Source: Candidatus Poribacteria bacterium
Lineage (GTDB): Bacteria; Poribacteria; WGA-4E; WGA-3G
Length of the DNA stretch: 64,000 nt
Direction of reading: 5' to 3'
Assembly (NCBI GenBank): GCA_965205065.1
Contig: CBDBFT010000001.1
Span: 2,156,836-2,220,835, forward strand
Every line of letters starts with the position of its first letter. The first letter of the stretch is position 1. Of the stretch, positions 9,441 through 53,597 are shown piece after piece. The translations under genes were made by a program, and so were the position numbers. The notes under the pieces are model-generated. The model saw only the letters and a list, made by a program, of their open reading frames with translations. It was not told where the DNA came from and searched no databases.

Positions 9441-9608
9441 TGAGGAAGATGAAGTGGATGTCTAAAGTTTATGTCAGAATCGCGGATTATCGCGGATGAC
9501 ACGGAAGGGGTTTCTTGTGCATTTCAAGTTTACTTTCACAAATTGGCGTTAATTTTAGCATAACCCCATAGACGGCAATTTAGTACAGAGAAGGATAATG
9601 AAGGATGA

Positions 9609-10320
9609 ATGTTGTATAAAGAAGCACAATCAAGGATGAATGTGCTACGGCAGTATCAAAAGGGATGGTGTAGGGTGAAGGGGATAGGTGGAAGGTTGGA
9701 AGGTTGGAAGGTTGGAAGAGGGGAAGGATGGAAGGTTGGAAGGTTGGAAGAGGGAAGGATGGAAGAGGGAAGAATGGATGGGAGGAAGGTTGGAAGAAAA
9801 GAAGAGGGAAGGATGGAAGGGTGGAAGGTTAGAGGGTTGTATGGGTGGAAGAAAGAAGCACAATCAAGGATGAATGTGCTACGGCAGTATCAAAAGGGAT
9901 GGTGTAGGGAAAAGGGGATAGATGGAAGGTTGGAAGGTTGGAAGAGGGGAAGGATGGAAGAGGGGAAGGTTGGAAGAGGGGAAGGTTGGAAGAGGGGAAG
10001 GATGGAAGGTTGGAAGGTTGGAAGAAAAGAAGAGGGAAGGATGGAAGGGTGGAAGGTTAGAGGGTTGTATGGGTGGAAGAAAGAAGCACAATCAAGGATG
10101 AATGTGCTACGGCAGTATCAAAAGGGATGGTGTAGGGAAAAGGGGATAGATGGAAGGTTGGAAGGTTGGAAGAGGGGAAGGATGGAAGGGTGGAAGGGTG
10201 GAAGAGGGAAGGATGGAAGAGGGGAAGGTTGGAAGAGGGAAGGATGGAAGGTTGGAAGGTTAGAGGGTTGTATGGGTGGAAGGAAGAAGCACAATCAAGG
10301 ATGAATGTGCTATAGGCATG
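9609..10320. repeat. Composite dispersed repeat: three higher-order units of about 220 bp. Each unit carries the hairpin motif AAGAAGCACAATCAAGGATGAATGTGCTAC plus a GGAAGG(A/T)TGGAAGAGGG minisatellite.
   Basis: Seen in sequence: the 9609-9670 module recurs near 9850 and near 10080. The ORFs across it (9609..10304 and others) are low-complexity translations (EGWKRGRMEEGK / SSILPLFHPS). Confidence 0.85.
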
Positions 10321-10401
10321 ATCGCGGAAGGCACGGAGGAGGTGGATATGCTCCTGAATCTTCTGTGCAAAAACTTTACACACCCAAAGTCACATTAGCA
10401 G

Positions 10402-10431
10402 TTGCCATAATTCAATAGTATGCGTTATAAT
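10402..10431 (+). promoter_or_regulatory. Candidate sigma70-like promoter (TTGCCA-N18-TATAAT) upstream of the dam-cas10 operon.
   Basis: TTGCCA at 10402-10407 and TATAAT at 10426-10431 in an AT-rich region about 60 bp upstream of the 10489 start. The RBS GGAG precedes the ATG. Pattern only; no expression data. Confidence 0.3.
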
Positions 10432-11550: not shown

Positions 11551-13857
11551 TTGAAACAACAACTTTTAACACTCGCAGCACTCCTACACGACATCGGCAA
11601 ATTTCGGCAACGCGCCACCGGACGCTACACAAAACACCAAGAACATAGCTACGAATTCGTCAACAACGATTTCAATACTTTCTTCGATCCTTGTGGAGAT
11701 ACCTTCAAAAACGCTATCCTAAACCACCATCATAAACCAGAACAACTTCAGCATCTCATAGAAAAACAGGTAGTATTAGCAGACCGTCTCTCCGCATCCG
11801 AACGCGAAGATGAGGAACGAGAAACGGAGGACTTCGTTGCATCTCCGCTCGCTTCTATTATGTCACGCCTTAAATGTGCTGAGAAAGAACATCGCTACAA
11901 ACTGACAAAACTCAATTTTGAACGGGACACGGTCATCCCACAAGAAACCGTTGAGGTCAATGAAAATGATTATGCAGGTTTGTGGGAGAAGTTTAAAGAG
12001 GAATTCAGCACAGCAACAGAAGGTAAAACCTATGAACCAGCACATTATCAAACCATCGTAGCACTCCTACACAAATACACAGTTCGTATACCGTCCGCAA
12101 CGCCGTGGGAAAAAGACGGAAAGAAAACGATCCCAGATATTTCGCTCTACGACCATCTCCGCACAACCGCAGCCATTGCAGCCTGTATCGGACACGAACT
12201 AAATGACGAAAACGAAGTTGACGCAATACTTAATGATACTGAAAAATCAGATCGGCACATAGCCTCGCTTATCAAAGGCGACATTTCGGGTATCCAGGAT
12301 TTTCTCTATCACATCCAATCCGATGGCGCATCCAACCAACTGCGTGGTCGTTCATTCTACCTGCAACTCCTCACGGAAGCAATCGCGCACTATGTCCTAA
12401 AGCAGTTTGAACTTCCTATCACAAACCTAATTCTCGCAAGTGGCGGACACTTCTTTATCCTTGCGCCTTACACCGAATCCAAAGAGAAGTTAAGCACAAT
12501 TCGACAAGAAATATCCCAAAAGTTGTGGGAACTCCATAGAGGCGATATTTCCTGCATGTTAGCGGGTATCTCCATAAAAGCACGCGATTTTAAAACTGAG
12601 AATTTCACGGAAAAATGGGATGCCGTTTCAAAAAAAGTCAATGAAAGAAAACAGCAGAAATGGTCAGAATTAGAAGCAGAACAGATGTTTGATAACCTCT
12701 TTGAGCCAAGCGATGACAGAACTATTAATGAACAGGAAGATGACGAAGAGAAGAAAAGAGACCCTTGGCAGTTTGAAAAACTTGGAAGGAAATTGCGGGA
12801 TGCAAAATATCTTATCACTTACGATATAGCAAAATCAGATATCCTTCCACAACCCAAATGGCACGATGCAATCAATGCCTTCGGTTTAGATGTTGAAGTC
12901 CTGGAAGATACCCGTGCCAAACCTGAACTGCAGGGAGTAAATACTGTTGTCTATAGACTCGGGGATACACGTTTTCTCGAAAATTCAGAAGATTTTCAAT
13001 CGGAAAACAACTTTGTTAGCTACGATTTCCGAATATTTAAACCCGTAATCGCATATCGGCACGATACAGATGAACCCGATAAAATCGCTGATTACAATCA
13101 CCTCGCAAACGCATCAGAAGGTGTTAACTGGTTCGGTGCACTCCGCATGGACGTTGATAACCTCGGCACCGTCTTCAAAGATAAACTTGAGAACGCAACC
13201 ATCTCACGGCATGCAACCTTAAGCAGAGAAATGCGCCTATTTTTTGAAGGATATGTCCCGAAACTATGTAAAGCATATAACGAGAACAAAAATAAACAGA
13301 TTCTTGAACTCATCTACGCTGGTGGTGATGACCTATTCCTTGTCGGTGGGTGGAGTGCGTTGCCTGATATAGCAGAACATATCCGCTCCGAATTTAAACA
13401 CTTTGTCACAGGTGCCCACGTAACGCTTTCAGGTGGTATCGCCATTGAACACATGAAGTATCCGCTTTATCAGTTTGCAGAACGGAGTGGCAATGCAGAA
13501 GACGCTGCAAAGGGTATTGATGAAAACAAGGATGCGATCTCATTTTTACAACTACCGATGAAATGGGAAGAGTTTGCTAAAGTGCGCGAATGGCACGAAA
13601 AGTTTACGAACGTACTAACAGGTCAAGACCAACTACCGCGCGACATACTCACCCGTCTCAGCCAGATATATGAAGATAAAGAGCGGTGGGCATGGCGTTC
13701 ACTCTACTACTTCCATCGACTACAAGAGAGATACAAATATGACGAACAGAAAGATTTTCTACGTGAACTAAAACAGAAACTTAACCACGAAGATTCTTCT
13801 CAATTTAGAGAGGAACTCATCCATGTCATTACCAGATGGACCGCACTACGTATCAGA

Positions 13858-13866
<9 letters not shown>
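11551..13866 (+). CDS. cas10: Cas10 (Csm1-like) large subunit with an N-terminal HD nuclease domain and a GGDD cyclase/Palm motif.
   Basis: LHDIGKF HD motif at residues about 11-17. IYAGGDDLFLVGGW GGDD motif in the C-terminal half. 771 aa. First gene of a csm2-csm5 series. Confidence 0.9.
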
Positions 13867-14632
<766 letters not shown>

Positions 14633-15486: not shown

Positions 15487-16518
15487 ATGGAAGATTATAC
15501 CGTCTATTGCTTACAGTTCAAAACCCAATTACATCTCGGACGCGCCACAGGTGCAGCACAAACTGGCAGCCTCGGCTTAGAGAAAACCGAGACCTACATC
15601 CCCGCAGACACCCTCTTTTCTGCGATATGCCAAACATGGTCAACCTTTTACGACACCGCAAGCCTCACCGATTTTCTCAATCAATACACAGCAGAAAACG
15701 GGACGCTTCCCTTTACCTTAACCTCTGCATTCCCGTACGCACAAAACATCTGTTTCTATCCCAAACCGATGATATGGACAGATAGATCAAAAGAAAGCAA
15801 ACGTATCCAATTTGTGTCGGACAACATATTTCAGCAGATTATTGCAGACAATCCACCAGCATTCGATAAAAAGCAGTTGATTACCGGAGAAAATGTTTGG
15901 ATAAGCGATACGGAAAAAAATCTGTTGAAGATAACAGATGGGGATGATTATGAAATTTGGAAAACTGCTACGCGTCCGCGCGTTACCATCGGTGCACAAA
16001 ACGCCGGATCCGAAATATGGCACGTCCAAACCGTCCAATTCAACAAAAACTGTGGACTCTGGTTCGCTGCGAAATTTGACTCTGATGCAACAAAACAGAA
16101 AGTAGAAACACTACTCCGAGTGCTTGGAGATAACGGCATCGGTGGTGAACGCAACGCTGGATATGGGCAGTTTGAGTTTGCCGAAGCAGAATGTAAGATA
16201 CCGTCAGCAGAAGATAGCACCCAATTTGTAACGCTTTCACCGATATGTCCCAAATCATCGGAGCAACTTGAGCATCTCCTCAAAGGTAATATCGCTTACA
16301 ACCTAAATCCATTAACAGGATGGGTAGGTTCACCAGGTACACATAAAAGGAGAAAAAAGGGCAATATGTTCGCTGAAGGTTCTGTTTTAAATGCTTATGA
16401 CGAACCCGTAGGCAGGTTGATAGATTTAAAACCGAAGGACTACCCGCATCCCGTCTATCGCTACGGATACGCATGGCAGGTCGGTATCAAAGTAGGAGGG
16501 AACTCCGATTCCCGATAA
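15487..16518 (+). CDS. csm4: Csm4 (Cas5-group RAMP).
   Basis: N-terminal LQFKTQLHLGRATG...YIPADTLFSAICQ pattern characteristic of Csm4. Position between csm3 and csm5. The C-terminus runs into the tandem repeat. Confidence 0.8.
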   Translation: MEDYTVYCLQFKTQLHLGRATGAAQTGSLGLEKTETYIPADTLFSAICQTWSTFYDTASLTDFLNQYTAENGTLPFTLTSAFPYAQNICFYPKPMIWTDRSKESKRIQFVSDNIFQQIIADNPPAFDKKQLITGENVWISDTEKNLLKITDGDDYEIWKTATRPRVTIGAQNAGSEIWHVQTVQFNKNCGLWFAAKFDSDATKQKVETLLRVLGDNGIGGERNAGYGQFEFAEAECKIPSAEDSTQFVTLSPICPKSSEQLEHLLKGNIAYNLNPLTGWVGSPGTHKRRKKGNMFAEGSVLNAYDEPVGRLIDLKPKDYPHPVYRYGYAWQVGIKVGGNSDSR

Positions 16519-16700
16519 GGTAGGAGGCCAACTATATAAAACTGGCCGATTCCCGATAAGGTAGGAGGGAACTCCGATTCCCGATAAGGTAGGAGGCCAA
16601 CTATATAAAACTGGCCGATTCCCGATAAGGTAGGAGGGAACTCCGATTCCCGATAAGGTAGGAGGCCAACTATATAAAACTGGCCGATTCCCGATAATGT
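16492..16700. repeat. Three tandem 69-bp units filling the csm4/csm5 junction. Each combines the GGGAACTCCGATTCCC hairpin with a GGCCA-N12-TGGCC hairpin and GGTAGGAGG boxes.
   Basis: Direct reading of 16492-16700. Same core as the 13858-14048 repeat. The core was not seen elsewhere in the window. Confidence 0.9.
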
Positions 16701-16713
16701 TGGAGACATCAGA

Positions 16714-17881: not shown

Positions 17882-18228
17882 CTTTTAATCGCACCAGTTT
17901 GGAATAGAAACTGACAATACTATGTAAAATGTGGTATAATTAAGTACTTTTAATCGCACCAGTTTGGAATAGAAACCATTATAATTGGAGACGGAATATT
18001 TTGCAGTCTAAACTTTTAATCGCACCAGTTTGGAATAGAAACGGGTGATTAATGACTCCCCGTAGCTCAGTGAATAGAGCATGAGGTTTCTACCCTCAGT
18101 GTCACAGGTTTGAATCCTGTCGGGGAGTCCACTTTTAATCGCACCAGTTTGGAATAGAAACACTCCCAAGTTGGACATGACTTATCAATAATGAAAAGCT
18201 TTTAATCGCGCCCGTTGTGTAAAGTTTT
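17882..18228 (+). CRISPR. Second, leaderless mini-array: four perfect copies and one degenerate terminal copy of the same 30-bp repeat. One inter-repeat unit is a tRNA-like gene.
   Basis: Perfect repeats at 17882-17911, 17947-17976, 18013-18042 and 18132-18161. A degenerate copy at 18199-18228 (CTTTTAATCGCGCCCGTTGTG...) marks the trailer end. The first repeat starts 4 nt after the csm5 stop. Confidence 0.9.
18056..18131 (+). tRNA. tRNA-Arg(UCU)-like gene with genome-encoded CCA, sitting between two CRISPR repeats.
   Basis: Manual fold: acceptor CTCCCCG/CGGGGAG, D-stem GCTC/GAGC, anticodon stem TGAGG/CCTCA with loop TTTCTAC (anticodon TCT), T-stem ACAGG/CCTGT, discriminator T, then CCA. Non-canonical D-loop (AGTGAATA, no GG pair) and T-loop (TTTGAAT). 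A19-U56 could covary. It may be a divergent or pseudo tRNA. Confidence 0.7.
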
Positions 18229-18689
18229 TGTCCCTATATGTTTCTGGTGGCTAAAGTTCTCGTCAATAGACAGGTGAAATTAGCAATCTCCTCTGTCTTT
18301 AGCTTACAGAGCAGCTTATGGTTGTGAAAAAACTTTGAAATTCACAAAAACCCCTTCCGTGTCCTCCGTGTCCTCCGCGTAATCCGCGATTCAGACAGTT
18401 AAGTGCCAAATCTTTACACACCATTAGCGTCAATTTAGTTAAATACGTTAGTGAGTTTGATACACCTTTCGCCTCTCTGAGGCTTTGGAAAATCACATAT
18501 CAGCACCCGACAAATCATGACGAATACCAAACGCGTATTCGTCCAAGCGCATTTGGCGTTGATTTCGGTGCAGAAGGTGTATATAGAACACGAATCCGCA
18601 TAAACCTAAGCACCAGTGGTGCGAAAGGTATGGGGCTAAAATCGGTCTTATATAGCCTACCAACAAGAGGGAATATCCTTAAATTGACG

Positions 18690-19270
18690 CAAAAGGTGGT
18701 TGTATAAAGAAGCACAATCAAGGATGAATGTGCTACAAAGAAGCACAATCAAGGATGAATGTGCTACAGCAATATCAATATGGATGTTGGGGGGAGAGTG
18801 GTATTATGAGGATGAATGTTGTAGAAAGAGGCACAATCTAACAGAATGTGCTACAAAGAAGCACAATCAAGGATGAATGTGCTACAGCAGTATCAAAATG
18901 GATGGTGTAGGGGAGAGTGGTATTATGAGGATGTATGTTTTTGAAAGAGGCACAATCTAACAGAATGTGCTACAAAAGAGGCACAATCTAACAGAATGTG
19001 CTACAAAGAAGCACAATCAAGGATGAATGTGCTACAGCAGTATCAAAATGGATGGTGTAGGGGAGAAGGGTAATGAAGGATGAATGTTGTAGAAAGAGGC
19101 ACAATCTAACAGAATGTGCTACAAAGAAGCACAATCAAGGATGAATGTGCTACAGCAGTATCAAAATGGATGGTGTAGGGGAGAGTGGTATTATGAGGAT
19201 GTATGTTTTTGAAAGAGGCACAATCTAACAGAATGTGCTACAAAAGAGGCACAATCTAACGGAATGTCTA
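18690..19270. repeat. Higher-order tandem repeat: about three units of about 190 bp. Each alternates two hairpin motifs (AAGCACAATCAAGGATGAATGTGCT and AGGCACAATCTAACAGAATGTGCT) with GGATGGTGTAGGGGAGAG blocks.
   Basis: Direct reading. No unique spacers, so it is not CRISPR-like. It sits in an about 2.2-kb non-coding, repeat-dense stretch (18230-20560). Confidence 0.8.
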
Positions 19271-19818
19271 TTATTGGTGAAGGTATTGAAGGTTAAGTGA
19301 CAAAAAGTTTACACACCCCAGACGTAACTCAGGTTGCGACGGAGCAGGCATTGGATGTATAATATATAAAACCAGATAGGAGTATAAACAATGCGTATAC
19401 GTTGGAACGTATCAAACATTGGATGTATAATCATCCAATTATGTATAGGGGCTATATTGGTTGCGATCACAATAAAAATCATTAGGTGGATATTATGAGC
19501 TTATAATCGCATCCGTATCGCACACTTGATATGTCCTAAATCTAAAAATAGGTGCGGAATCCACCTCAGTAGACCGTGTTGTTACCGAGTACGTTATAAT
19601 CCTGAAAATCCTATAATCCTGAAAATCTTGGTTCAGACAAGAAAAAATTCATATACCCAAAAACACATGCATTGAGAAATAACTTTACACACCCTTTTCT
19701 ATATACCTGTCGCCCCTCTGGGGCTTACTCTGGTAATATTGACGTTTTCTATATACCTTTCGCCCCTCTGGGGCTTGGCAGGGTGTGGGGACGTTCTTCT
19801 ATAAACATATCGTCCCTA

Positions 19819-19936
19819 ATGAAGATTAAGTTATTAATTGGGTAATATGCGGGCGGGGAAACCCCGCCCCTACGAAATCTTACTCCTACGATGAGGCATA
19901 TCAGTAGAATTACCTGATTATTTATTTAATCTTCAT
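19819..19936. mobile_element. MITE-like element, family A. 118 bp, perfect 11-bp TIRs ATGAAGATTAA/TTAATCTTCAT, internal GC hairpin GGGCGGGGAAACCCCGCCC.
   Basis: Near-identical copies at 20053-20170 and 28646-28763, and a rearranged copy at about 42230-42393. The empty-site sequence GTCCCTACGGGAC occurs nearby (about 19990, 20225, 20290). Confidence 0.75.
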
Positions 19937-20052
19937 ACGGGAATGAAGAGAGGTGGGGTACACATTCTTCTGCTATAAACATATCGTCCCTACGGGACTT
20001 GGGAGCGGGGTAGGGACGTTAGGGACGTTCTTCTATAAACATTCCGTCCCTA

Positions 20053-20170
20053 ATGAAGATTAAGTTATTAATTGGGTAATATGCGGGCGGGGAAACCCCG
20101 CCCCTACGAAATCTTACTCCTACGATGAGGCATATCAGTAGAATTACCTGATTATTTATTTAATCTTCAT
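20053..20170. mobile_element. MITE-like element, family A, copy 2.
   Basis: Near-identical to 19819-19936 including TIRs. Same flanks, CCCTA / ACGGGA. Confidence 0.75.
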
Positions 20171-20339
20171 ACGGGACTGAAGATAGGTGGGGTACACATT
20201 ATTCTGCTATAAACATATCGTCCCTACGGGACTTGGGATGGGTAGGGACGTTAGGGACGTTAGGGACGTTCTGCTATAAACATTCCGTCCCTACGGGACT
20301 TGGGACTTGAGAGGCTTTCTGCCTGGAAGAATCCTTAAG

Positions 20340-20560
20340 GTTACACCCATAGAAACGATGTTTTCATCCTTCCAATCTTCCCATCTTCCCATCTTCCACT
20401 CTTCCACTCTTCCACTCTTCCACTCTTCCATTCTTCCGGATCGGATCGTTTTACGATTGAGTCTCGTGGGTGCATCCTTCCCTCTTCCATCCTTCCCATC
20501 TTCCATCCTTCCCATCTTCCATCCTTCCCTCTTCCATCCTTCCCATCTTCCACCCATCCT
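20340..20560. repeat. GGAAGG-type minisatellite (reverse-complement orientation CTTCC/ATCTTCC).
   Basis: Direct reading. ORFs 20291..20578, 20307..20564 and 20341..20553 are low-complexity artefacts. Confidence 0.85.
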
Positions 20561-20567
20561 CTGAAAC

Positions 20568-23267
20568 CTATTTAACAACTATTAGTCGTCGAGTCTGTTG
20601 GAATGACTCTGTTGTCAACTGGTAGAAATAGAGTCCACTTGCGACACTTTCACCGAAGGCGTTCTTACCATCCCAATAGGCAGCACGACCTCGGTCTTGA
20701 TAGAATCCTACCGATTGGAAACCGAGTGAAAAGGTTCGGACAACGCTACCTGTTGCGTTATATATCGTGATGGATACGTTGCTGTCTTCTGATAGACGAT
20801 AGGGTATCCACGTCTCTGGATTGAATGGGTTGGGATAGTTTTGTAATAACTCGCTCTGTTTCGGTGTGCCAATGCTGTCGAGTGTGACGGATAGAACAGC
20901 TTCTGCGACACTGGGGGGTGTTACTTCAAAGGTGAACGCGTCAGATGCAATATTACCGTCTGAGTCGGTAACGATGAGTTGCATGGTATCACCAACCTGA
21001 ACGACACTTCGGTAGCTGAGGTCCGCTGTAGCAGCGGCGAAGTAGTTATCCTTCACTTGTGTGGTCATAACGTTGTGCGTTCGCAGGTTTTTGACTGTGA
21101 TGTGATAACCGTCGTATGTCTGTTTACCGTCTAAGTGTCCACTTACGATAAATGCCCAATTCTGCTGCTGTGTTGCGATTTCCGTTGCGCTGGGAGCTGC
21201 AGCTGCGTCAGTTTTGTTGCGCCACTCTGCACCGACGAACGTGACATCGCGATCTGTTGTGACATTGACGATATAACCCTGTCCACCCTCAATTTGAAAT
21301 CCGTTATCCGGAGCGTTTGGTGTCCAACCGATGAACCTTTGGTTATCGGCATCAAGTGCGATGACCATTGTTGAACCTGTCAAACCTGCAAATGCTCTTG
21401 CATTCACCGGTTTCGGTGTTGCTAAAGGTAGCGATAGCATGTTCAAGCCTTTTGACAACTTTAGATTGAATATGTTGGCATACCGGTCGCTGTCTTCCTT
21501 GGTGGCGGGTCTCGCGATAAATCCGTGTTTTCGTCCATCGGCTGAGTTATAGTTCCCCACAACAGAACCGTCCTGATTGATATTCCAACCTTCTGTGCTA
21601 ACACTGCCTGGGAATACCAATGGACGTAGTCCGTACTGTAGTGATCCGACAGAAGTTCGGACGATATCGTCTAATCGTTTGGATCTGCCAACGAGAGTTC
21701 CCACATCGTTGATACCGTGCACAAAAAAGTACTCAAACGATGCAGCTTGGGGTAGGTCAAGGGAAATTATCCTCCCGTTAGGTTGCTGCACAAATGGATG
21801 ATAAACACCTTCATCAGAAATGTAGCTACCCACAATCTGTCCACTTGCATTTATAAAATATGCAAAAGTTTCCTGTGCATCTGTTGCTTCAATGATGATG
21901 TCTCCAGAGAATCCGCGTCGGATACCAGCGTCGTCTATAAAGTGTCCTGTTAGTGCGCCAGTTGCATCACTGATGCCGTATATCTCGGTTTGGACAGCAT
22001 TTGGGTAATCGTATTGTGTCAGTTCACCATTTTCTAAGATGACACCGTGAAACAGACCGTCGCTATCCTGATAGTGTCCGGCAGCTGATCCATCGTTTCC
22101 AAGTGCATAGAAATGCGTTTTCTGAGAGTCTGGATAATCATGAGTGGTAAAGACGCCGGAGATGAGCGTAAAAGCGACCTCTTTTCCAGCGGCATTCCGC
22201 GTGTATCCAGCATAATCGTCAAAGTCGCTACTTGCAGTCACCGCTAAAAAGTCTACACCGGGGACATCAATACTCTCAAAAGTAAAGTTGAGTTCTCCAG
22301 GTGTAGGGGTCGGAACGGGAATGTCTACGCCCGGTTCATCAGTGTCTGTTATAGGTCTTGCGATGAATCCGTGCCTCCGTCCATCTGCTGTTTCATAGTG
22401 TCCAACGATGGATCCATCTTGATTGATATTATATCCTTCTGTGCTAACGCTGTCTGGAACCCTAAGGATCTTTAACCCACCTTGAAATGTACCGACAAGT
22501 GTGCCCGGGAAATCATCAATGCGTTTAGTTCGGGCAACGACAACATTAGAATCGTTGATACCGTGTACAAAGAAGTATTCCAGCTGCGCCGCACCTGGCA
22601 GGTCAAGAGAAACAAATCGGCCCCTCGGTGTTCTGACATAAGGATGATATAAACCGTCAGCATCTATGTAACTTCCGACCATACCACCGCTTGCGTTGAC
22701 GAAATCAGCGAATGTTTCAGTCGCGCCGGGGACTTCAATTATTTCGTCTGCCGAGAACCCGCGTCGAACCCCCGATTCGTCTGTAAAGTTTCCTGTTAGT
22801 GCACCTGTGGCGTCACTAATACCGTATATTTCGGTTTGGACGGAACCTGGAAAATCGTATTGTCGCATCTCACCATTTTCTAAGACGACACCGTGGAACA
22901 GTCCATCGTTATCTTCGTAGTGTCCGGCAGCGTTTCCATTATTACCGAGTGCAAAGAAATATGTGTTTTTTGCATCGGGGAATTCGTAAGTTTTAAAGAC
23001 TCCATCAATGAGGGTGAAGGCGACATCTCTTTCGCCATCAGCACTGCGCGTATAACCTGCATAATCCTCAAAGTCGCTACTTGCAGTAATAGATAGACTG
23101 TCTACACCGGGAACCTCTATCGTTTCAAAAGTGTAGTTATCGCTGATAGAAGCGATAACAGGTTGAACGTTCCCTTGCGCGTCAATGTGCAATGGGAAAA
23201 ATGCATTGAGACACATGAAGAACGTAAACACAAAAAACAGTGAACTGGATTTAATCAAATTTCGCAT
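20568..23267 (-). CDS. Secreted multi-repeat protein with a T9SS C-terminal sorting domain (Por_Secre_tail). Paralog 1 of 2.
   Basis: The C-terminal about 80 aa (LLQNYPNPFNPETWIPYRL...ITIYNATGSVVRTF...YWDGKNAFGESVASGLYFYQL) match the T9SS CTD consensus. N-terminal signal peptide (MRNLIKSSSLFFVFTFFMCLNAFF). Two internal about 300-aa duplicated modules. Start set at the ATG at 23267, which has the RBS AAGGAG. Confidence 0.75.
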   Translation of the reverse strand: MRNLIKSSSLFFVFTFFMCLNAFFPLHIDAQGNVQPVIASISDNYTFETIEVPGVDSLSITASSDFEDYAGYTRSADGERDVAFTLIDGVFKTYEFPDAKNTYFFALGNNGNAAGHYEDNDGLFHGVVLENGEMRQYDFPGSVQTEIYGISDATGALTGNFTDESGVRRGFSADEIIEVPGATETFADFVNASGGMVGSYIDADGLYHPYVRTPRGRFVSLDLPGAAQLEYFFVHGINDSNVVVARTKRIDDFPGTLVGTFQGGLKILRVPDSVSTEGYNINQDGSIVGHYETADGRRHGFIARPITDTDEPGVDIPVPTPTPGELNFTFESIDVPGVDFLAVTASSDFDDYAGYTRNAAGKEVAFTLISGVFTTHDYPDSQKTHFYALGNDGSAAGHYQDSDGLFHGVILENGELTQYDYPNAVQTEIYGISDATGALTGHFIDDAGIRRGFSGDIIIEATDAQETFAYFINASGQIVGSYISDEGVYHPFVQQPNGRIISLDLPQAASFEYFFVHGINDVGTLVGRSKRLDDIVRTSVGSLQYGLRPLVFPGSVSTEGWNINQDGSVVGNYNSADGRKHGFIARPATKEDSDRYANIFNLKLSKGLNMLSLPLATPKPVNARAFAGLTGSTMVIALDADNQRFIGWTPNAPDNGFQIEGGQGYIVNVTTDRDVTFVGAEWRNKTDAAAAPSATEIATQQQNWAFIVSGHLDGKQTYDGYHITVKNLRTHNVMTTQVKDNYFAAATADLSYRSVVQVGDTMQLIVTDSDGNIASDAFTFEVTPPSVAEAVLSVTLDSIGTPKQSELLQNYPNPFNPETWIPYRLSEDSNVSITIYNATGSVVRTFSLGFQSVGFYQDRGRAAYWDGKNAFGESVASGLYFYQLTTESFQQTRRLIVVK

Positions 23268-23525
23268 AATATACTCCTTTTTTGGGACTTTCCTACCAAA
23301 GAACAATAATATCATTAGGTCTATGTTTCCATCGTAACGTTTTTTAAGATTATACCCTTTATGGTGTGAAATGTCAACCTACTGCACACTGAGAGTGTGT
23401 AAAGTTATTGTCACTAAACATTCAATACCTTCACCAATAATAGACATTCCTCTCTTGCATCTTTCCACTCTTCCACCCTTCCATCTTTCCACTCTTCCAC
23501 CCTTCTATCCACTGAGAACTGAAAC

Positions 23526-26189
23526 CTATTTAACAACGATCAACCGTCGGGTTTGTTGGAATGACTCTGTTGTCAACTGGTAGAAATAGAGTCCACTTGC
23601 GACACTTTCACCGAAGGCGTTCTTACCATCCCAATAGGCAGCGCGACCCCGGTCTTGATAGAAACCTACCGATTGGAAACCGAGTGAGAAGGTTCGGACA
23701 ACGCTACCTGTTGCGTCATATATCGTGATGGAAACCTTGCTATCTTCCGATAGACGATAAGGTATCCACGTCTCTGGATTGAACGGGTTGGGATAGTTTT
23801 GTAATAGCGCACTATGCTTCGGTGTGCCAATGCTGTCAAGTGTGATGGATAGAACCGCTTCTGCGATACTCGCGGGAGTTACTTCAAAGGTGAACGCGTC
23901 AGATGCAATATTACCGTTTGTATCGGTTACGGTCACTTCCATAGTATCACCAACCTGCACGACATTTCGGTAACTGAGGTCTGCTGTAGCCGCGGCGAAG
24001 TAGTTATCTTTTACTTGGGTGGTCATAAGGTTATGCGTTCGCAGGTTTTTGACTGTGATGTGGTACCCATCGTATTTATGCTTACCTTCCAAGTGTCCGC
24101 TTACGATAAATGCCCAGACTTCTTTTTGCTTAGATACGGCAGCGGGTGCAGCGGTTATCTCCGATTGATTTGTCCAGGGTGCCCCGACGAATAGAACACT
24201 GCGAGTTTCTGGGACGTTGACAATATATCCTTGTCCACCTTCAATTGTGAATCCATCGTCGGGCGCGCTTGGTGTCCAACCGATGAACCGTTGGTTTTCA
24301 GCATCAAGTGCGATTACCATTGTTGATCCAGCGATTCCCGCGAGTGATTTTGCTGTCATCGGCTGCTGTGTTGCTAAAGGTAGCGACAGCGAGTTCAGAC
24401 CTTTGGTGAGTGTAACGTTGAAGATGTTGCCGAAATTGTCACTTACTGTTTTTTCAGCGAGTCTTGCGATAAATCCGTGTCTGCGTCCATCCGCTGTATC
24501 ATAGTGTCCGACGACAGAACCATCCTGATTGATATTCCAACCCTCCGTGCTAACAGCACCGGGAAACTGCAATTCTTGTAGGTTGAGAGGACTGCCGACA
24601 TAAGTACGTGGAACATCACCGACCTCTTTGGCTCTACCAACGACAGCTCTTGCATTGTTGAGTCCGTGGAGAAAGAAGTATTCCAGGTTTGTTGCGTTTG
24701 GCAGGTCAATAGATAGAAATCTTCCGATTGAACTGCGCATGTATGCATGATATACCCCTGCGGCATCCTGGTAGCTGCCGACGATATGGCCTGTCCAACT
24801 CACAAAATCGGCATAAGTTGCCGATGCACTGGGAGCTTCAACTACTGTATCCCCTGAGAACCCACGACGAACACCAGAGGCATCTATATAACTGCCTGTC
24901 AATGCCCCCGTTGCATCACTTAGACCGTATATCTCGGTTTGAACTGCATCCGGAAAATCGTATCGTCGCAATTCGCCATTCTCTAAGATGACACCGTGGT
25001 ACAAACCATTGCTATCTTTGTAGTGTCCAGCAGCTGTCCCGTCATTACCGAGTGCATAGAAATAGGTTCCCTGCGAGTCAGGATAATCATAAGTGGTAAA
25101 AACGCCATTGATAAGTGTAAAAGCGACATCTTTTTCATCATTAGCATTCCGCATGTTGCCGGCGTAATCAAAAAAGTCGCTACTGGCAGTTACCGCTAAG
25201 AAATCTACACCGGGAACATTAATACTCTCAAAAGTATAGTTGAGTGCGGGGGGCACAACACCGGGTCGCGCTTGTGGAGTCCCCGGTTTCGGTCTCGCGA
25301 TAAACCCGTGTCTACGTCCATCCGCAGAGTCATAATGTCCTACGATAGAGTTGTCCTCATTAACATTCCATCCTTCCGTGCTGACGCTGCCTGGAAACTG
25401 CAATTCTTGTAAGGCGACCGGATTACCGGCATAAGTGCGTGGGACATCACCCGCCGTTTTGGCTCGACCGACAGCAATCAGGGCACTGTTGATTCCATGG
25501 AGAAAGAAGTATTCGAGATTTGCTTCTACAGGAAGGTCGAGTGTTGCAAAACTACCCCCTGGTCCACGCAGGTATGCATGATAATTACCTTCGGTGTCTA
25601 CGTAGCTACCCACGACATTGCCTATCGTGCTTACAAAGTCAGCATAAGTTTCCGTTGCGCCAGGATACGCAATTATTTCATCTCCTGAAAAACCACGACG
25701 CACACCGGCAGCATCCGTAAAATTACCAGTCAGTACACCCGTTGAATCGCTATACCCGTATATCTCCGTTTGGACAGCACCCGGATAATCGTATTGCCGC
25801 AACTCCCCGTTTTCTAATATGACGCCGTGGAAGAGTCCGTCGCTATCTTCGTAGTGTCCGGCTGCGACCCCATTATTACCGAGTGCGTAGAAATAAGTAT
25901 TTTGTGCCTCAGGGAAATCATAAGTTGTGTAAACGCCATCTATGAGTGTAAACGCGACGAATTTTTCACCATCAACACTATGCGTATAGCCTGCGTAATC
26001 CTCAAAGTCGCTACTGGCTGTTAAAGCTAAGAAATCTACACCGGGTACTTCTATCGTTTCAAAAGTATAGTTGTCACTAAGGGATGCTGCAACGTTTTGC
26101 GCTGTAGCGTTTGGTGGAAAAAAGGCATTGAGACATAGAGACATTGAAAACATGAAGAATAGAAAATAGGTTTTAATCAAATTTTGCAT
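23526..26189 (-). CDS. Secreted multi-repeat protein with a T9SS C-terminal sorting domain. Paralog 2, tandem to 20568..23267.
   Basis: Same architecture. The C-terminal 190 aa are nearly identical to the neighbour's. Signal peptide MQNLIKTYFLFFMFSMSLCLNAFF. Confidence 0.75.
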   Translation of the reverse strand: MQNLIKTYFLFFMFSMSLCLNAFFPPNATAQNVAASLSDNYTFETIEVPGVDFLALTASSDFEDYAGYTHSVDGEKFVAFTLIDGVYTTYDFPEAQNTYFYALGNNGVAAGHYEDSDGLFHGVILENGELRQYDYPGAVQTEIYGYSDSTGVLTGNFTDAAGVRRGFSGDEIIAYPGATETYADFVSTIGNVVGSYVDTEGNYHAYLRGPGGSFATLDLPVEANLEYFFLHGINSALIAVGRAKTAGDVPRTYAGNPVALQELQFPGSVSTEGWNVNEDNSIVGHYDSADGRRHGFIARPKPGTPQARPGVVPPALNYTFESINVPGVDFLAVTASSDFFDYAGNMRNANDEKDVAFTLINGVFTTYDYPDSQGTYFYALGNDGTAAGHYKDSNGLYHGVILENGELRRYDFPDAVQTEIYGLSDATGALTGSYIDASGVRRGFSGDTVVEAPSASATYADFVSWTGHIVGSYQDAAGVYHAYMRSSIGRFLSIDLPNATNLEYFFLHGLNNARAVVGRAKEVGDVPRTYVGSPLNLQELQFPGAVSTEGWNINQDGSVVGHYDTADGRRHGFIARLAEKTVSDNFGNIFNVTLTKGLNSLSLPLATQQPMTAKSLAGIAGSTMVIALDAENQRFIGWTPSAPDDGFTIEGGQGYIVNVPETRSVLFVGAPWTNQSEITAAPAAVSKQKEVWAFIVSGHLEGKHKYDGYHITVKNLRTHNLMTTQVKDNYFAAATADLSYRNVVQVGDTMEVTVTDTNGNIASDAFTFEVTPASIAEAVLSITLDSIGTPKHSALLQNYPNPFNPETWIPYRLSEDSKVSITIYDATGSVVRTFSLGFQSVGFYQDRGRAAYWDGKNAFGESVASGLYFYQLTTESFQQTRRLIVVK

Positions 26190-27048: not shown

Positions 27049-27179
27049 AGATAGGATTTTTTTTTCTACTTACAAGGGACTTGACTAAATTATACGATGT
27101 ATAGAGCGAATTGTCAAGTAGTTTTCTGAGGACACAACAACAACCAAAATTGATTGAAAATACGCAAATACTATGCTAT

Positions 27180-27545
27180 TATAGATGTATGGAAGGATGG
27201 AAGAGGAAGAGGAAGAGGAAGATTGGAAGAGGAAGGTTGGAAGAGGGGAAGAGGGGAAGGATGGAAGAGGAAGATTGGAAGGGTGGAAGAGGGAGATTGG
27301 AAGGATGGAAGGGTGGAAGAGGAAGATTGGAAGAGGAAGATTGGAAGGGTGGAAGAGGGAGATTGGAAGGGTGGAAGAGGAAGATTGGAAGAGGAAGATT
27401 GGAAGAGGAAGATTAGAAGAGGAAGATTGGAAGGGTGGAAGAGGGAGATTGGAAGAGGAAGATTGGAAGAGGAAGATTGGAAGAGGAAGATTGGAAGGTT
27501 GGAAGAGGGAGATTGGAGGAGTGGAAGAGGAAGAATACGGCAGAG
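27180..27545. repeat. GGAAGA/GGAAGG minisatellite (GAAGAGGAAGATTGGAAGGGTGGAAGAGGGAGATTG units).
   Basis: Direct reading. The overlapping ORFs 27111..27416, 27154..27579 and 27185..27556 are artefacts. Confidence 0.85.
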
Positions 27546-34368: not shown

Positions 34369-34424
34369 TTTTTTATCCTTTCCAATTGTGCTTTGGCTAC
34401 ACGGACGGGAAAACTCCGCCCATA

Positions 34425-39410: not shown

Positions 39411-40192
39411 CTCTCTTTAAGACCCTGTGCGATTGCCTGACGGATCTGTTGGATATTCTCTCTTCGGGACCCGGATGTATGAAATACACTGCTGCTGCCG
39501 CCGACCAAAATATCTGCCCCTGCTGCTACCATTTTAGGGATATTTTTGAAACTGACATTTCCATCAACTTCTATCGGTAGTTCAGCACCGTTTTTATCCA
39601 AAAAAGTGCGACATTCCTCTATTTTTCGCAAAGTCGCCGGTACTAATTTCTGTCCAGCAAATCCTGGGTTGACCGTCATAATAAGCACGAAGTCCAACTT
39701 ATCAACAACATACGTTAATGCGGAAAGCGGCGTTGCTGGATTCAAAGCAACACCCGATTTTATACCGTGCCCCTGAATAAGAGATAAAGTCCTATCCAAA
39801 TGGATAGCAGATTCAGCATGGATTGCGATCTGTTGGACACCGATGTTGGCAACTGCTTCCACAAAGAAATCGTTATTGTTTACCATCAAGTGAATGTCAA
39901 AAGCGCAGTCTGTTTTTTGACGTAGTTGTTCAATGAGTGCCAACCCAATCGGCATGTTTGGAACGAAGTGTGCGTCCATCAAGTCAAAATGAAGCAGGTT
40001 TATTCCCGCTTTTTCTAACTCACGTAAATCTTCTTCCAGGTTACAGAGATCAGCACACATCACTGAAGGTGCTATGCTGATATTTTTATCTGCGGGACTA
40101 AGGCTTTGACTCTCATGAGTCGGCAAGATATTACTCCAATCAAATACGGGTTTCTCAAATATTATTATAACATTAATTGAGTAAATTGTCAA
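39401..40192 (-). CDS. rpe: Ribulose-phosphate 3-epimerase family protein, with an N-terminal extension.
   Basis: IAPSVMCADLCNL...HFDLMDAHFVPN matches the Rpe core (IAPSILSADF...DVMDGHFVPN). Confidence 0.7.
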   Translation of the reverse strand: MTIYSINVIIIFEKPVFDWSNILPTHESQSLSPADKNISIAPSVMCADLCNLEEDLRELEKAGINLLHFDLMDAHFVPNMPIGLALIEQLRQKTDCAFDIHLMVNNNDFFVEAVANIGVQQIAIHAESAIHLDRTLSLIQGHGIKSGVALNPATPLSALTYVVDKLDFVLIMTVNPGFAGQKLVPATLRKIEECRTFLDKNGAELPIEVDGNVSFKNIPKMVAAGADILVGGSSSVFHTSGSRRENIQQIRQAIAQGLKERCG

Positions 40193-40195
40193 ATA

Positions 40196-40800
40196 ATGGT
40201 TAGATTAGATGGAATGGGAAGGTTGGAAGAGGGGAAGGATGGAAGAGGGGAAGGATGGAAGAGGGGAAGGATGGAAGAGGGGAAGGATGGAAGAGGGGAA
40301 GGTTGGAAGAGGGGAAGGTTGGAAGAGGGGAAGGTTGGAAGAGGGGAAGGTTGGAAGAGGGGAAGGATGGAAGATGGGAAGGATGGAAGATGGGAAGGAT
40401 GGAAGATGGGAAGGTTGGAAGAGGGGAAGGATGGAAGAGGGGAAGGATGGAAGATGGGAAGGATGGAAGAGGGGAAGGTTGGAAGAGGGGAAGGATGGAA
40501 GAGGGGAAGGTTGGAAGAGGGGAAGGATGGAAGAGGGGAAGGATGGAAGATGGGAAGGATGGAAGATGGGAAGGTTGGAAGAGGGGAAGGATGGAAGAGG
40601 GGAAGGATGGAAGATGGGAAGGATGGAAGAGGGGAAGGTTGGAAGAGGGGAAGGATGGAAGAGGGGAAGGATGGAAGATGGGAAGGATGGAAGATGGGAA
40701 GGATGGAAGAGGGGAAGGTTGGAAGAGGGGAAGGATGGAAGATGGGAAGGATGGAAGAGGGGAAGGATGGAAGAGGGGAAGGGGTTGTTGTATAAAGCAG
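40196..40800. repeat. About 600-bp GGAAGG(A/T)TGGAAGAGGG minisatellite, the largest copy.
   Basis: Direct reading. All overlapping ORFs (40189..40809 and others) are artefacts. Followed by the AGCACAATCAAGGATGAATGTGCT hairpin and a GTGTAAAGTTTTTGTC motif. Confidence 0.9.
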
Positions 40801-41003
40801 CACAATCAAGGATGAATGTGCTACGGCAGTATCAAAATGGTTGAGGTAGGGTGAACGATAATGAAGGATGGGTGTGTAAAGTTTTTGTCACTATAAGTGT
40901 CAATTTTGGGATCTCATAAGCTCTTAATAGTAGTAGGCACTCTCCGAGTGCCGTTGTCCGAAACATTTTACTGCAAAAGCTCTTAATAGTAGTAGGCACT
41001 CTC

Positions 41004-41118
41004 ATGAAGTTTAAATAATTAAACGGGTAATTTCTTGTTTGCATAATGCAGGCACACCATTCTGCTGGCGAGGTTTCCTAACCTCGCCAAATTACCCAAA
41101 TATTTTCTTTAACTTCAT
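41004..41118. mobile_element. MITE-like element, family B. 115 bp, TIRs ATGAAGTTTAAAT.../...AACTTCAT, internal hairpin GGCGAGGTTTCCTAACCTCGCC. Inserted in a palindromic REP-like unit.
   Basis: Flanks GGCACTCTC | element | CCGAGTGCC reconstitute the palindrome GGCACTCTCCGAGTGCC that is seen intact at about 40935. A second copy is at 53241-53355. Confidence 0.65.
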
Positions 41119-52293: not shown

Positions 52294-53139
52294 TTATGGA
52301 TCTCTTTTGTGAAACGCATCAATCTTTTCCTGCAAAAACTTTACACAGTATGGAATCTGTTCTTCGGTAAGTCCATGCAGAACAACTGCACCATCATAAC
52401 CGCACTCGCTTAGTAAACGGAGATATTGGTCGTAATCCAGCAGTCCTGTTCCTGCAGCAAGATGTCCCGCTTCTCCATCCCGGTCCAAATCTTTCGCGTG
52501 TGCAAGGACAATGTCTTTTCCTAAGAGCGTAAAAGCCTCGTCAAGAATATCCCGCATCTGTGGTAATTCACCTTTATGGAATATGTTTGCCCCATCCATA
52601 ACTACCTTCAGGTAAGGTGATTGCATTTCATCAAGTAGGCGGCGTGCCTTCTTTGCGGAGTCAATCACATTGGAAACTTCCGGTTCCATTGCCAACGTAA
52701 CTCCATATTCCTCAGCAATCTCTAACGCTTTCTCCATTGACTGAACAAGATCATGCCATGCGTCTATTGCGTTGTTATCAGGATGAGCCCGCCACATACT
52801 GTGTGGGTTGCGTGAACCAGTACATAACGTTATCACTGATGTTCCAAGTGGCTTACACTGTCCTGCAACATAACGCAATTTATCTAAACCCGCTTCCCGT
52901 TTTTGAACATTTGGGTCAATCATATTGTATGTTCCAGATAGCGCAACGATTTTTATTCCTCTATCCTCTATCGCTTGACGAATCTTGTCAGTAGATGTTC
53001 CACCTTTTGAAACATGGTACTGTAAGAAATATACCTCTTGTGTCACCACAGAATCAAGCGTTTCTTCTAAAGTCTCTCTATGAATAGTACCTTCCATAAG
53101 ACCAATGTTCATACGTCTCTCCAAATTTGTTAGTAGCAC
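52294..53139 (-). CDS. Sugar-phosphate isomerase/epimerase (xylose-isomerase-like TIM barrel).
   Basis: Family-level pattern: length and conserved His/Glu/Asp positions. Moderate. Confidence 0.55.
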   Translation of the reverse strand: MLLTNLERRMNIGLMEGTIHRETLEETLDSVVTQEVYFLQYHVSKGGTSTDKIRQAIEDRGIKIVALSGTYNMIDPNVQKREAGLDKLRYVAGQCKPLGTSVITLCTGSRNPHSMWRAHPDNNAIDAWHDLVQSMEKALEIAEEYGVTLAMEPEVSNVIDSAKKARRLLDEMQSPYLKVVMDGANIFHKGELPQMRDILDEAFTLLGKDIVLAHAKDLDRDGEAGHLAAGTGLLDYDQYLRLLSECGYDGAVVLHGLTEEQIPYCVKFLQEKIDAFHKRDP

Positions 53140-53240: not shown

Positions 53241-53355
53241 ATGAAGTTAAAATAATACTTTGGGTAATTTGGCGAGGTTAGGAAACCTCGCCAGCGGGGG
53301 AATGAACCTGCATCATGGGAACAGACAATTACCGAATTAATTATTTGATCTTCAT
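53241..53355. mobile_element. MITE-like element, family B, copy 2.
   Basis: ATGAAGTTAAAATAA...GGCGAGGTTAGGAAACCTCGCC...TTTGATCTTCAT, flanked by CCCTA / ACGGGAC like the family-A copies. Confidence 0.65.
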
Positions 53356-53597
53356 ACGGGACTGAAGAGGGTTTCTGGCATCGAAAATCCTTAACTTTAC
53401 ACCTATAGTAGCATTTATTCTTAACCCTACAATAAACAGACAGCTCCTTGATTATACATTACGAATAATCAAATGACAAGGATAGTGTCCATTTGGGGTG
53501 TGTATGTATTTTGTCACCTTTTTCAGAAGAGACGGCACTCGGAGAGTGCCTACTACTATTAAGATCAATTATAAGAAATTGACGGCGCGGCGTAATT

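Follow-up and report, generated by a model that had tools for sequence, protein, structure and literature searches.

Small modular repeats that resemble miniature inverted-repeat transposable elements (MITEs) are known from several bacteria, among them the pneumococcal BOX (boxA-boxB(n)-boxC), Neisseria Correia and enterobacterial ERIC elements. Other mobile DNA settles next to promoters. Insertion sequences (IS) of the ISKra4 group have inverted repeats (IRs) of 18-39 bp with a terminal C and produce direct repeats of 8-9 bp (Guerillot et al. 2014, PMC3942029). The ISKra4 group, ISLre2 and the TnGBS elements insert 13-17 bp upstream of sigma-A promoters, with both sides able to face the promoter if the IRs are near-perfect (PMC3942029). 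We analysed 64,000 nucleotides of a Candidatus Poribacteria genome (contig CBDBFT010000001.1, positions 2,156,836 to 2,220,835; hereafter the window), for which a preliminary description had proposed a composite repeat at five loci, the one at 40.2-40.9 kb among them, built from a GGAAGG-type minisatellite, a hairpin and a GTGTAAAG box. Our data are probably best explained by the box being the terminal IR of an ISKra4-group IS (p-MULT 4 of the prokaryotic Mutator-like transposases) of Candidatus Poribacteria. The short box-bounded elements of the window would be transposase-less derivatives (MITEs), fragments and solo ends of this IS. Judged by sequence, the repeat is a known kind of mobile DNA, namely ISKra4-group MITEs whose modular interior comprises, among other parts, a tandem-repeat tract.

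The box and its probable parent insertion sequence

All six positions named for the box are real. With up to three mismatches, the box GTGTAAAGTTTTTGTC was found 7 times in the window (1.04 expected), and relaxed matching raised the number to about 9, adding copies at 9456, 18402 and 53496. A match at 52331, which lies inside a coding sequence, has no GGGT prefix and is conserved in an ortholog, was discarded as a chance match. In a logo of 90 unique aligned copies the conserved block comprised 22 nt, GGGTGTGTAAAGTTTTTGTCAC ... GTGACAAAAACTTTACACACCC. At its outer edge the information content dropped from 1.26 to 0.03 bits; on the inner side it decayed over a few bases, and further inside at least eight unrelated subterminal types shared the one IR. 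Boxes often formed convergent pairs 120-1500 bp apart (0.1-1.5 kb), and no close divergent pair was seen among the sampled loci. Five pairs were flanked by 9-bp direct repeats, perfect at loci L088 (GTGAAAATG, 9/9) and L100 (CACGTGTGC, 9/9) and imperfect at L029 (8/9), L067 (8/9) and L070 (7/9); the chance expectation of about 0.05 such duplications among some 25 pairs is our own estimate and not the output of a tool. The MITE copies at L067 and L070 sit at different sites and are 96.6% identical.

The intact IS is 1,453 bp long, with IR-L GGGTGTGTAAAGTTTTTGTAC... and IR-R ...GTACAAAAACTTTACACACCC, and was present in six identical copies in one related 5.78-Mb genome (L108-L113, ERZ26167216 ctg495924), flanked by 8-9-bp duplications (9/9 at L108). 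The flanks of these copies showed 67-80% nucleotide identity to named Poribacteria metagenome-assembled genomes (MAGs) and contained the same small repeats. The transposase (P0127, 439 aa), which lies between the IRs in L108-L115, matched the ISKra4 model NF033572 of NCBIfam with 230.8 bits (cut-off 205); its second-best match, the ISLre2 model NF033529, reached 82 bits, far under the ISLre2 cut-off. Intact homologs of this transposase were numerous. At L106 (2628-4330) a copy of about 1.7 kb between the box IRs had a frameshifted gene whose frame-corrected translation scored 213 bits (cut-off 205). A metagenome scan with the IR yielded a 330-bp IR-bounded element (L099, 463-793) with a 64-codon open reading frame (ORF), in which an internal deletion fused the first ~15 to the last ~45 codons of the transposase. 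This ORF matched positions 389-422 of 422 of NF033572 (E 3.6e-7), and longer fragments gave E 1e-24. Because the intact IS, the frameshifted copy and the deletion derivative share their ends, the series from autonomous IS over decayed IS and internal-deletion derivative to MITEs with foreign interiors can be taken as documented at the level of sequence.

The short elements measured 120-930 bp, and about 120 unique ends were collected in the ~0.9 Mb sampled. As for an IS of this group, we found 22-bp IRs, 8-9-bp duplications, an ISKra4 transposase in the autonomous partner and insertion upstream of promoters; as for MITEs, a size below ~1 kb, no transposase, IRs common to the autonomous IS and many copies. 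The proposal of a non-autonomous repeat family was borne out, with ISKra4-group IRs bounding transposase-less derivatives and 9-bp target duplications present in related MAGs.

None of the short box pairs at the sampled loci had a transposase on its inner side. ORFs inward of solo boxes turned out to be ordinary genes (extracytoplasmic function sigma factor, TPR protein, Uma2, enoyl reductase, S49 peptidase and others). An Rpn/YhgA-like (Transposase_31) gene between boxes at L072 is not enclosed by a matching IR pair, and neither is the PDDEXK_2 gene next to 52331. The IS1 family, considered from a remembered "GGnnnTG, 8-9 bp" signature, was dropped after tblastn searches with InsA/InsB came back empty, and is superseded by the ISKra4 evidence. 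A cyanobacterial origin or a transposon associated with clustered regularly interspaced short palindromic repeats (CRISPR), suspected from a CRISPR repeat by a tRNA and from TGT... ends, was rejected: the window encodes sigma-54 activators and type IX secretion sorting domains, its cas genes are of type III-A (csm), it contains no tnsB/C or tniQ, and a genome scan assigned the repeats to Poribacteria.

The target duplications of the six IS copies were swapped: the left one of L109 equals the right one of L110, the left one of L110 the right one of L111, and the left one of L111 the right one of L109, whereas those of L112 and L113 are reciprocal. This pattern indicates that recombination between copies inverted or rearranged large chromosome segments.

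The placement of the boxes was equally informative. With looser criteria for a promoter, an outward-facing one started 13-18 nt from the IR tip at 32 of 121 unique junctions, with 9, 13 and 5 cases at 15, 16 and 17 nt and at most two at any position outside 13-18 nt; inward-facing controls totalled 3. At 13 of 95 junctions an exact TTGACA stood 15-16 nt from the tip, with a -10 hexamer N17 further on. At L067 and L070 the 15-nt gap consisted of the 9-bp duplication plus 6 bp. In the window, the IRs at 23393 (15 nt), 10364-10385 (16 nt) and 19297 (15 nt, weaker site) lie next to promoters or promoter-like sites. Since the offset was present with every subterminal type, it should be a property of the IR and transposase and not of the cargo.

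The preliminary description had taken the box for a possible promoter or operator element. Its proximity to gene starts is real, the box is not a promoter, and insertion targeting explains the proximity: boxes lie near gene starts because the ISKra4 group inserts 13-17 bp upstream of -35 hexamers. A cis-regulatory site, be it a promoter element or the operator or activator site of a global regulator near -62, would account for the 26% of boxes at a fixed distance upstream of consensus promoters and for solo boxes upstream of ordinary genes, and convergent boxes would then simply be divergent promoter regions. However, the 22-mer forms both ends of a multi-copy, transposase-encoding IS, 9-bp target duplications exist, many boxes have no flanking gene or promoter or face the 3' ends of genes (9456, 18213, 18402, 40870), and insertion at this fixed distance is documented for the ISKra4 group (PMC3942029). 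We regard a regulatory site as most improbable. Read as a sigma-54, CRP-like or Bacteroidetes-type promoter, the box did not fit the consensus spacings when checked by eye.

Hairpin and purine tract within the elements

A MITE layout recurred in which IR-L is followed by 9-nt subterminal repeats (TCTATTTGTCAGAATCGCGGATTACGCGGAGGA...GGAAGGGG), a GGAAG-rich tract, one or more hairpin units and IR-R (...CGCGGAAAGTGCGGAGGAGGTGGATATGCTCCTGAATCTTCTGTGCAAAAACTTTACACACCC). Complete elements with minisatellite and hairpin were found at L067 (two), L070 and L008, and single-IR fragments of the same layout at L012, L030, L046 and L006. The window element 9456-10385 follows it too, with its hairpin-plus-tract unit triplicated to an array (9618-10313) that makes up its interior. 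Over the sampled loci, non-coding DNA had 1.24 boxes per kb where a hairpin lay within 400 nt and 0.36 elsewhere (3.4-fold), and 34 of 87 hairpin loci had a box nearby. The modules do co-occur beyond chance, contrary to the outcome that would have refuted the preliminary description. Its claim that they are shared across loci held in full for just two of them (9.5-10.4 and 40.2-40.9 kb) and was incomplete elsewhere: minisatellite and box occur at 23.4 kb, hairpins and boxes without minisatellite at 18.2-19.7 kb, and the minisatellite alone at 20.4 and 27.2 kb. From these distributions the three-module composite is a loose association.

Several observations weigh against the ISKra4 attribution as a complete account. 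The 64-kb window contains no transposase or full-length IS, most convergent pairs have no recognisable target duplication, and none is recognisable for the window's own elements. Fifty-three of the 87 hairpin loci have no IR within 400 nt, and of the five minisatellites in the window, those at 20.4 and 27.2 kb lack both a nearby IR and a canonical hairpin. At the 40-kb locus, the IR is that of a neighbouring element and there is no left IR between the minisatellite and the rpe promoter. Hairpins and tracts without an IR imply that both also exist, and perhaps spread, independently of the MITE.

The hairpin AGCACAATCAAGGATGAATGTGCTAC was found, with at most one mismatch, 10 times in the window (9623, 9857, 10085, 10288, 18711, 18742, 18860, 19010, 19128 and 40799), all on the plus strand, with none expected by chance. 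It is predicted to fold into 6 bp, an A.A mismatch, 3 bp and a tetraloop (-9.7 kcal/mol, z = -4.5). Among 220 GCACA...TGTGC copies in the sampled loci the upper stem was TCA/TGA in 138, TCT/AGA in 52 and ACT/AGT in 3; compensatory changes on both sides thus keep the pairing. Scanning one genome per species with the hairpin 22-mer gave at least 87 loci, of which all named ones lie in Candidatus Poribacteria MAGs of at least eight species. The nearest relatives are 88-91% identical to the window in syntenic coding DNA. Hairpin arrays in other MAGs have a period of 82-99 nt, with an invariant hairpin and a diverged remainder of the unit. Hairpin orientation was independent of the direction of flanking genes, which argues against a strand-specific RNA role and fits selfish DNA; just 4 clusters lie inside ORFs.

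A GTAG joined to an imperfect palindrome is the hallmark of repetitive extragenic palindromic (REP) sequences (Nunvar 2010, Ton-Hoang 2012). The reverse complement of the hairpin, GTAGCACATTCATCCTTGATTGTGC, has GTAG and an imperfect palindrome, and the REP-type features of the hairpin comprise the imperfect palindrome, the 5' GTAG, a high copy number and an extragenic position. On this basis the hairpin appears to be a structure-conserved, REP-like palindrome (GTAG plus GCACA..TGTGC). As in REPs and bacterial interspersed mosaic elements (BIMEs), the palindrome is short, imperfect, intergenic and equipped with GTAG, it occurs singly, in inverted pairs and in arrays, and its stem is kept. Unlike in classical REPs, the stem is short (6+3 bp) and A/T-rich and many copies lie inside IR-bounded MITEs. 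Unlike in systems with a REP-associated Y1 transposase (RAYT), no RAYT flanked by this hairpin was found in the hairpin-centred loci (~0.8 Mb).

The hairpin arrays, perhaps together with the minisatellite, might on these grounds be a separate REP/BIME-type system, whose palindromes are spread by a RAYT or by local duplication and whose nesting in or by MITEs merely reflects shared permissive intergenic DNA. Besides the GTAG palindrome of the reverse complement and the stem kept by compensatory changes, this is favoured by a 22-mer that is identical in at least eight species-level MAGs, by arrays that keep the hairpin while their spacers diverged, by the 53 hairpin loci without nearby IR, by small palindromic modules that are clean indels within an orthologous MITE, and by a RAYT-like Y1 transposase with REP flanks that Poribacteria do encode (L073). 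This sole RAYT, however, has a different REP (AGCACCAGCGGTGCGA...) and was set aside as what probably does not move this hairpin; in the ~0.8 Mb of hairpin-centred loci, tblastn gave no second Y1 transposase. The hairpin position is also fixed inside several complete IR-bounded elements, and box and hairpin co-occur 3.4-fold over the non-coding background. We consider a separate system possible but doubtful.

The Y1 transposase gene (L073 5740-6430, Pfam Y1_Tnp 1.8e-28) has on its flanks AGCACCAGCGGTGCGAxAGGTAT, three times in direct and twice in inverted orientation. This REP and a relative, TATACCTxTCGCCCCTCTGGGGCTT, are also present in the window at ~18610-18635 and 19700-19780. A separate dispersed family, which begins with the G+C-rich hairpin GCGGGCGGGGAAACCCCGCCCCTACGAAA and is up to ~90 nt long, has copies at 19843, 20077, 28670, 42237 and 42302 and a weaker one at 34395; two of its copies lie inside a 234-bp tandem repeat (19788-20293). 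An orthologous MITE of two species (L029 1326-2030, L047 1208-1952) is 97.3% identical inside, with flanks of 90-92%. What sets its two copies apart is a 71-nt duplication and a 34-nt palindromic module (GCCAAATGCGCGTTTGGC) that is cleanly present or absent. Small palindromes seem to be gained and lost one at a time, and the MITE copies may be homogenised.

Turning to the minisatellites, Tandem Repeats Finder (TRF) and the ORF positions confirmed five GGAAGG-type tracts in the window, all of them intergenic. The pattern GGAAGGWTGGAAGAGG matched 75 times with up to two mismatches (0.06 expected). In the 40-kb tract TRF found a period of 16 with 35.4 copies, 95% matches and the consensus GGGAAGGATGGAAGAG. 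Its units come in three variants, GGAAGGATGGAAGAGG, GGAAGGTTGGAAGAGG and GGAAGGATGGAAGATG; identical variants are clustered in runs (aaaa, tttt, xxx) and a six-unit 'taxata' block recurs. These runs and the repeated block read as slippage and unequal exchange, and indicate a recent local history of single-unit slippage and unequal exchange for this tract.

The tracts at 20.4 and 23.4 kb meet the 3' flanks of two paralogous genes at the same point and differ in length (156 vs 63 nt). They are paralogous copies from a tandem gene duplication. The five tracts proposed earlier stand, but these two are not independent loci. The shared junction yet unequal length implies change in place after the duplication. 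The genes themselves (20568-26189; 915 and 887 aa) are tandem paralogs with FlgD-Ig and type IX secretion system (T9SS) C-terminal sorting domains and internal repeats of 846/831 nt. Their relatives at L088 lie directly downstream of Ldh_2, a block that has moved relative to the window.

Outside the window, 9 of 13 tracts lie within 90 nt of a hairpin, and tracts in other Poribacteria have just 36-92 nt, within MITE subterminal modules. The 344- and 567-nt tracts are, as far as can be read from these comparisons, expansions particular to the genome of the window. The purine tract would grow out of the subterminal module of one MITE subfamily and expand locally. The slippage-prone nature ascribed to the tracts at the outset is supported indirectly, by identical-variant runs, higher-order duplications and unequal paralogous lengths.

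Their contingency-like nature was not supported, as the 16-nt tracts lie neither in coding sequence nor between -35 and -10 hexamers, the 40-kb tract starting 23 nt upstream of the rpe -35. A wider version would make the minisatellites contingency tracts or structured DNA or RNA switches, whose copy number tunes the rpe and trpA/GHMP kinase promoters by H-DNA or G-quadruplex formation or as a purine-rich 5' leader. The proximity of tracts to promoters, at rpe in particular, would suit it, as would a G-rich strand with GG/GGGG runs every 4-8 nt (read from the sequence), recent homogenisation (95% matches) and hence instability, and a 27-kb tract that begins at a predicted start site and would give a GHMP-kinase leader of ~390 nt. 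Not only the 16-nt but also the 14/22-nt units, however, are outside coding sequence and not between -35 and -10, the other Poribacteria tracts are short and lie inside MITE subterminal modules, and two tracts lie downstream of stop codons. We judge such switches very unlikely. The 27-kb tract ends 45 nt before the GHMP-kinase ATG; should the promoter-like site 27154-27182 be active, the GHMP-kinase mRNA would carry these 344 nt of purine tract as its 5' leader.

It is hardly credible that the tracts code for protein repeats, form a CRISPR-like array, belong to a known RNA family or result from faulty assembly. ORFs of 186-211 aa do cross the 40-kb tract in several frames and on both strands, and a CRISPR array adjoins the first locus. 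A period of 16, though, is not divisible by 3 and cannot encode a protein repeat; the ~200-aa ORFs exist only because stop codons are absent from the unit. What lies between the hairpins is homologous from one interval to the next, as in diverged tandem units, unlike the unique spacers of CRISPR arrays; no Rfam family matched, even at E<=1; and an artefact is opposed by the patterning of the unit variants and by short homologous tracts in independent MAGs. The exact tract copy number is still assembly-dependent.

The 40-kb locus and other features of the window

At the 40-kb locus the rpe promoter is followed by a 23-nt spacer, the 567-nt tract, one hairpin unit and a perfect IR. The minisatellite starts 23 nt upstream of the rpe -35. 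We attribute the IR at 40870 to a short element (40870 to ~41155) that points away from the minisatellite: left of it, other loci run on into the next hairpin unit, so that the IR is part of a different element, one that has interrupted a hairpin array. This element carries a nested 115-nt insertion.

The 115-nt element has CATGAAG...CTTCAT ends and is present as inverted copies 12 kb apart (41004-41118 and 53241-53355, 79% identity). Of the two copies of a duplicated 59-nt module, the intact one lies at 40920-40978 and the second is split by the 115-nt element at 41 kb. The 40-kb region is a synteny break, as Ldh_2 orthologs (86-90% identity) have a periplasmic-binding-protein gene upstream. 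An orthologous empty site was sought there and rejected, since the different upstream neighbour leaves no clean filled/empty pair. The position upstream of Ldh_2 is variable among Poribacteria (loci compared: L096, L088-L095, L097), with a 45-bp spacer in one species, an 882-bp MITE and a WD40 gene in a second and a TnpB (Cas12f-like) gene in a third; the 882-bp MITE has a perfect 9-bp duplication. The counterpart of this spot in the window (40.2-41.2 kb) is occupied by rpe and the minisatellite.

Table 1. Repeat-related features and promoters of the 64-kb window, in order of position.
Feature	Position	Strand	Details
Degenerate left IR	9456-9477	+	GGATGTCTAAAGTTTATGTCAG; 15 nt from last CRISPR repeat of 141-repeat array
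Higher-order array	9618-10313	+	~three tandem 228-nt units (hairpin unit + minisatellite block), then fourth hairpin
Minisatellite	9689-10284	+	TRF
Right IR	10364-10385	-	GGGTGTGTAAAGTTTTTGCACA; 'b-type' subterminal sequence
Promoter-like site	10402-10431	+	TTGCCA-18-TATAAT; 16 nt beyond IR tip; faces Dam-methylase/csm operon
MITE	18213-18423		211 bp; IRs 18213-18234 (+) and 18402-18423 (-); left tip truncates CRISPR repeat
Array of two hairpin variants	18700-19267	+	Loops ATCAAGGATGAA, ATCTAACAGAA; 118/150/268-nt higher-order repeats; no minisatellite
IR	19297-19318	-	'c-type' subterminal; weaker promoter-like TTGCGA-18-TATAAT 15 nt beyond tip
Further IR copy	19673-19694	-	GGGTGTGTAAAGTTATTTCTCA
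Minisatellite	20369-20559	-	Two blocks; 8 nt past stop codon of T9SS-sorted gene 20568-23315
Consensus promoter of gene 20568-23315	23349-23377	-	TTGACA-17-TATAAT; 15 nt beyond IR tip 23393
IR	23393-23414	+	GAGTGTGTAAAGTTATTGTCAC; 'c-type' subterminal sequence
Short minisatellite	23447-23509	-	Between IR subterminal module and stop codon of gene 23526-26189
Promoter-like site	27154-27182		Extended -10; TTGAAA-17-TATTAT, 10/12; ends 7 nt before 27-kb minisatellite
Orphan minisatellite	27190-27534	+	14/22-nt units; box and hairpin absent within kilobases
rpe consensus promoter	40164-40192	-	TTGACA-17-TATAAT, 12/12
Purine-rich minisatellite	40216-40782	+	Unit GGGAAGGWTGGAAGAK (16 nt); TRF, unit-by-unit list
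Hairpin unit	40783-40869	+	Cut short by adjacent IR; stem-loop core 40799-40824
Perfect 22-nt IR	40870-40891	+	GGGTGTGTAAAGTTTTTGTCAC; tip left, inner side right
Degenerate IR copy	53496-53517	+	GGGTGTGTATGTATTTTGTCAC; upstream of glycerate kinase

The proteins encoded in the window include sigma-54 activators, T9SS-sorted surface proteins, a multihaem/TPR protein and those of a type III-A csm operon, which adjoins the 141-repeat CRISPR array. Cues to the transcribed strand of the CRISPR arrays conflict: a weak Rfam CRISPR-DR2 match lies on the minus strand, whereas a degenerate terminal repeat suggests the plus strand. Directly after the csm operon follows a mini-array of 4.5 repeats (17882-18215), in which a tRNA-Arg(TCT) with encoded CCA (18056-18131) stands where a spacer would be expected (89 nt, 18043-18131), with a perfect CRISPR repeat on either side and its CCA flush with the next repeat. 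Both CRISPR arrays end abruptly at IR tips (9441-9477, with 15 nt before the IR at 9456, and 18198-18234); the IR at 18213 truncates the final mini-array repeat after ~17 nt. Neither end shows a target duplication, which suggests IS-mediated deletion or rearrangement. In the interval 13857-14632, a cold-shock domain and Csm2 are joined in one ORF, 13925-14632 (Pfam 7.6e-11, 5.3e-31). Between cas10 and this ORF lie 4.9 copies of a 39-nt tandem repeat, AAACAGGTAGGAGGGAACTCCGATTCCCGACATATTGAA, and 69-nt repeats of related sequence lie between two later csm genes (16492-16705).

Proposed mechanism and comparison with known elements

Taken together, the MITEs would be mobilised in trans, presumably by the 439-aa DDE transposase of full-length copies elsewhere. 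As the sequences show, transposition makes a 9-bp target duplication and sets the IR tip 13-18 bp upstream of a sigma-70-type -35. One common subfamily has a left IR, 9-nt repeats (CGCGGAKKA) that run into a GGAAG-rich tract, and REP-like hairpin unit(s). The purine tract and the hairpin units may then lengthen and shorten where they lie, through replication slippage and unequal recombination, and growth of the tract would have reached 35 units (567 bp) at 40.2 kb. Fragments may outlast IRs lost by decay, nested insertion or IS-mediated rearrangement. A cellular function is not needed to explain the pattern.

We think it unlikely that hairpin and purine tract constitute a second, independently selected or mobile system on a promoter-targeting MITE, either as a RAYT-type REP with a stem under structural selection or as a G-rich H-DNA, quadruplex or purine leader tract. 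If true, this second system would be a "promoter-proximal cassette" that modulates transcription or local recombination in Poribacteria.

Under the ISKra4 reading, a three-module repeat is resolved into one documented mechanism plus local repeat dynamics, and annotators of Poribacteria MAGs can mask the elements and stop calling spurious ~200-aa ORFs in the tracts. The 32 independent junctions indicate that canonical TTGACA-N17-TATAAT promoters are used in this uncultivated phylum. IR tips mark promoters and so provide a free promoter map. The junctions also replicate independently, in a distant phylum and with non-autonomous elements, the promoter-upstream targeting of ISKra4, ISLre2 and TnGBS. 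The overlap of IS and MITEs with synteny breaks and the swapped duplications make it likely that these elements drive rearrangement, and cause assembly breaks, in the genomes of sponge symbionts. We found no description of these MITEs and repeats in Poribacteria in the searchable literature.

In conclusion, the elements agree with the ISKra4 group in their transposase family, in near-perfect 22-bp IRs with terminal G...C, in 8-9-bp duplications and in insertion 13-18 bp upstream of a sigma-70-type -35 with either element side. They depart from it in that the window contains just transposase-less derivatives and solo ends, in their host, an uncultivated sponge-symbiont phylum, and in interiors replaced by REP-like hairpins, 9-nt subterminal repeats and a purine minisatellite. 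With the TnGBS integrative conjugative elements and ISLre2 (p-MULT 3) they share a related DDE fold and the targeting, there 15-17 bp upstream of sigma-A promoters. Elements of p-MULT 3, however, insert in a single orientation with IRr by the promoter, whereas in Poribacteria promoters were found by ends of every subterminal type, and the conjugation genes of TnGBS are absent. The elements resemble BOX, Correia and ERIC in being small, intergenic and high-copy, with terminal IRs, an inner module of variable copy number and a frequent position by promoters. Unlike for those repeats, a parent IS and a target rule can be identified here, a 16-nt purine unit reaches up to 35 copies, and at least eight different subterminal sequences are combined with one IR.

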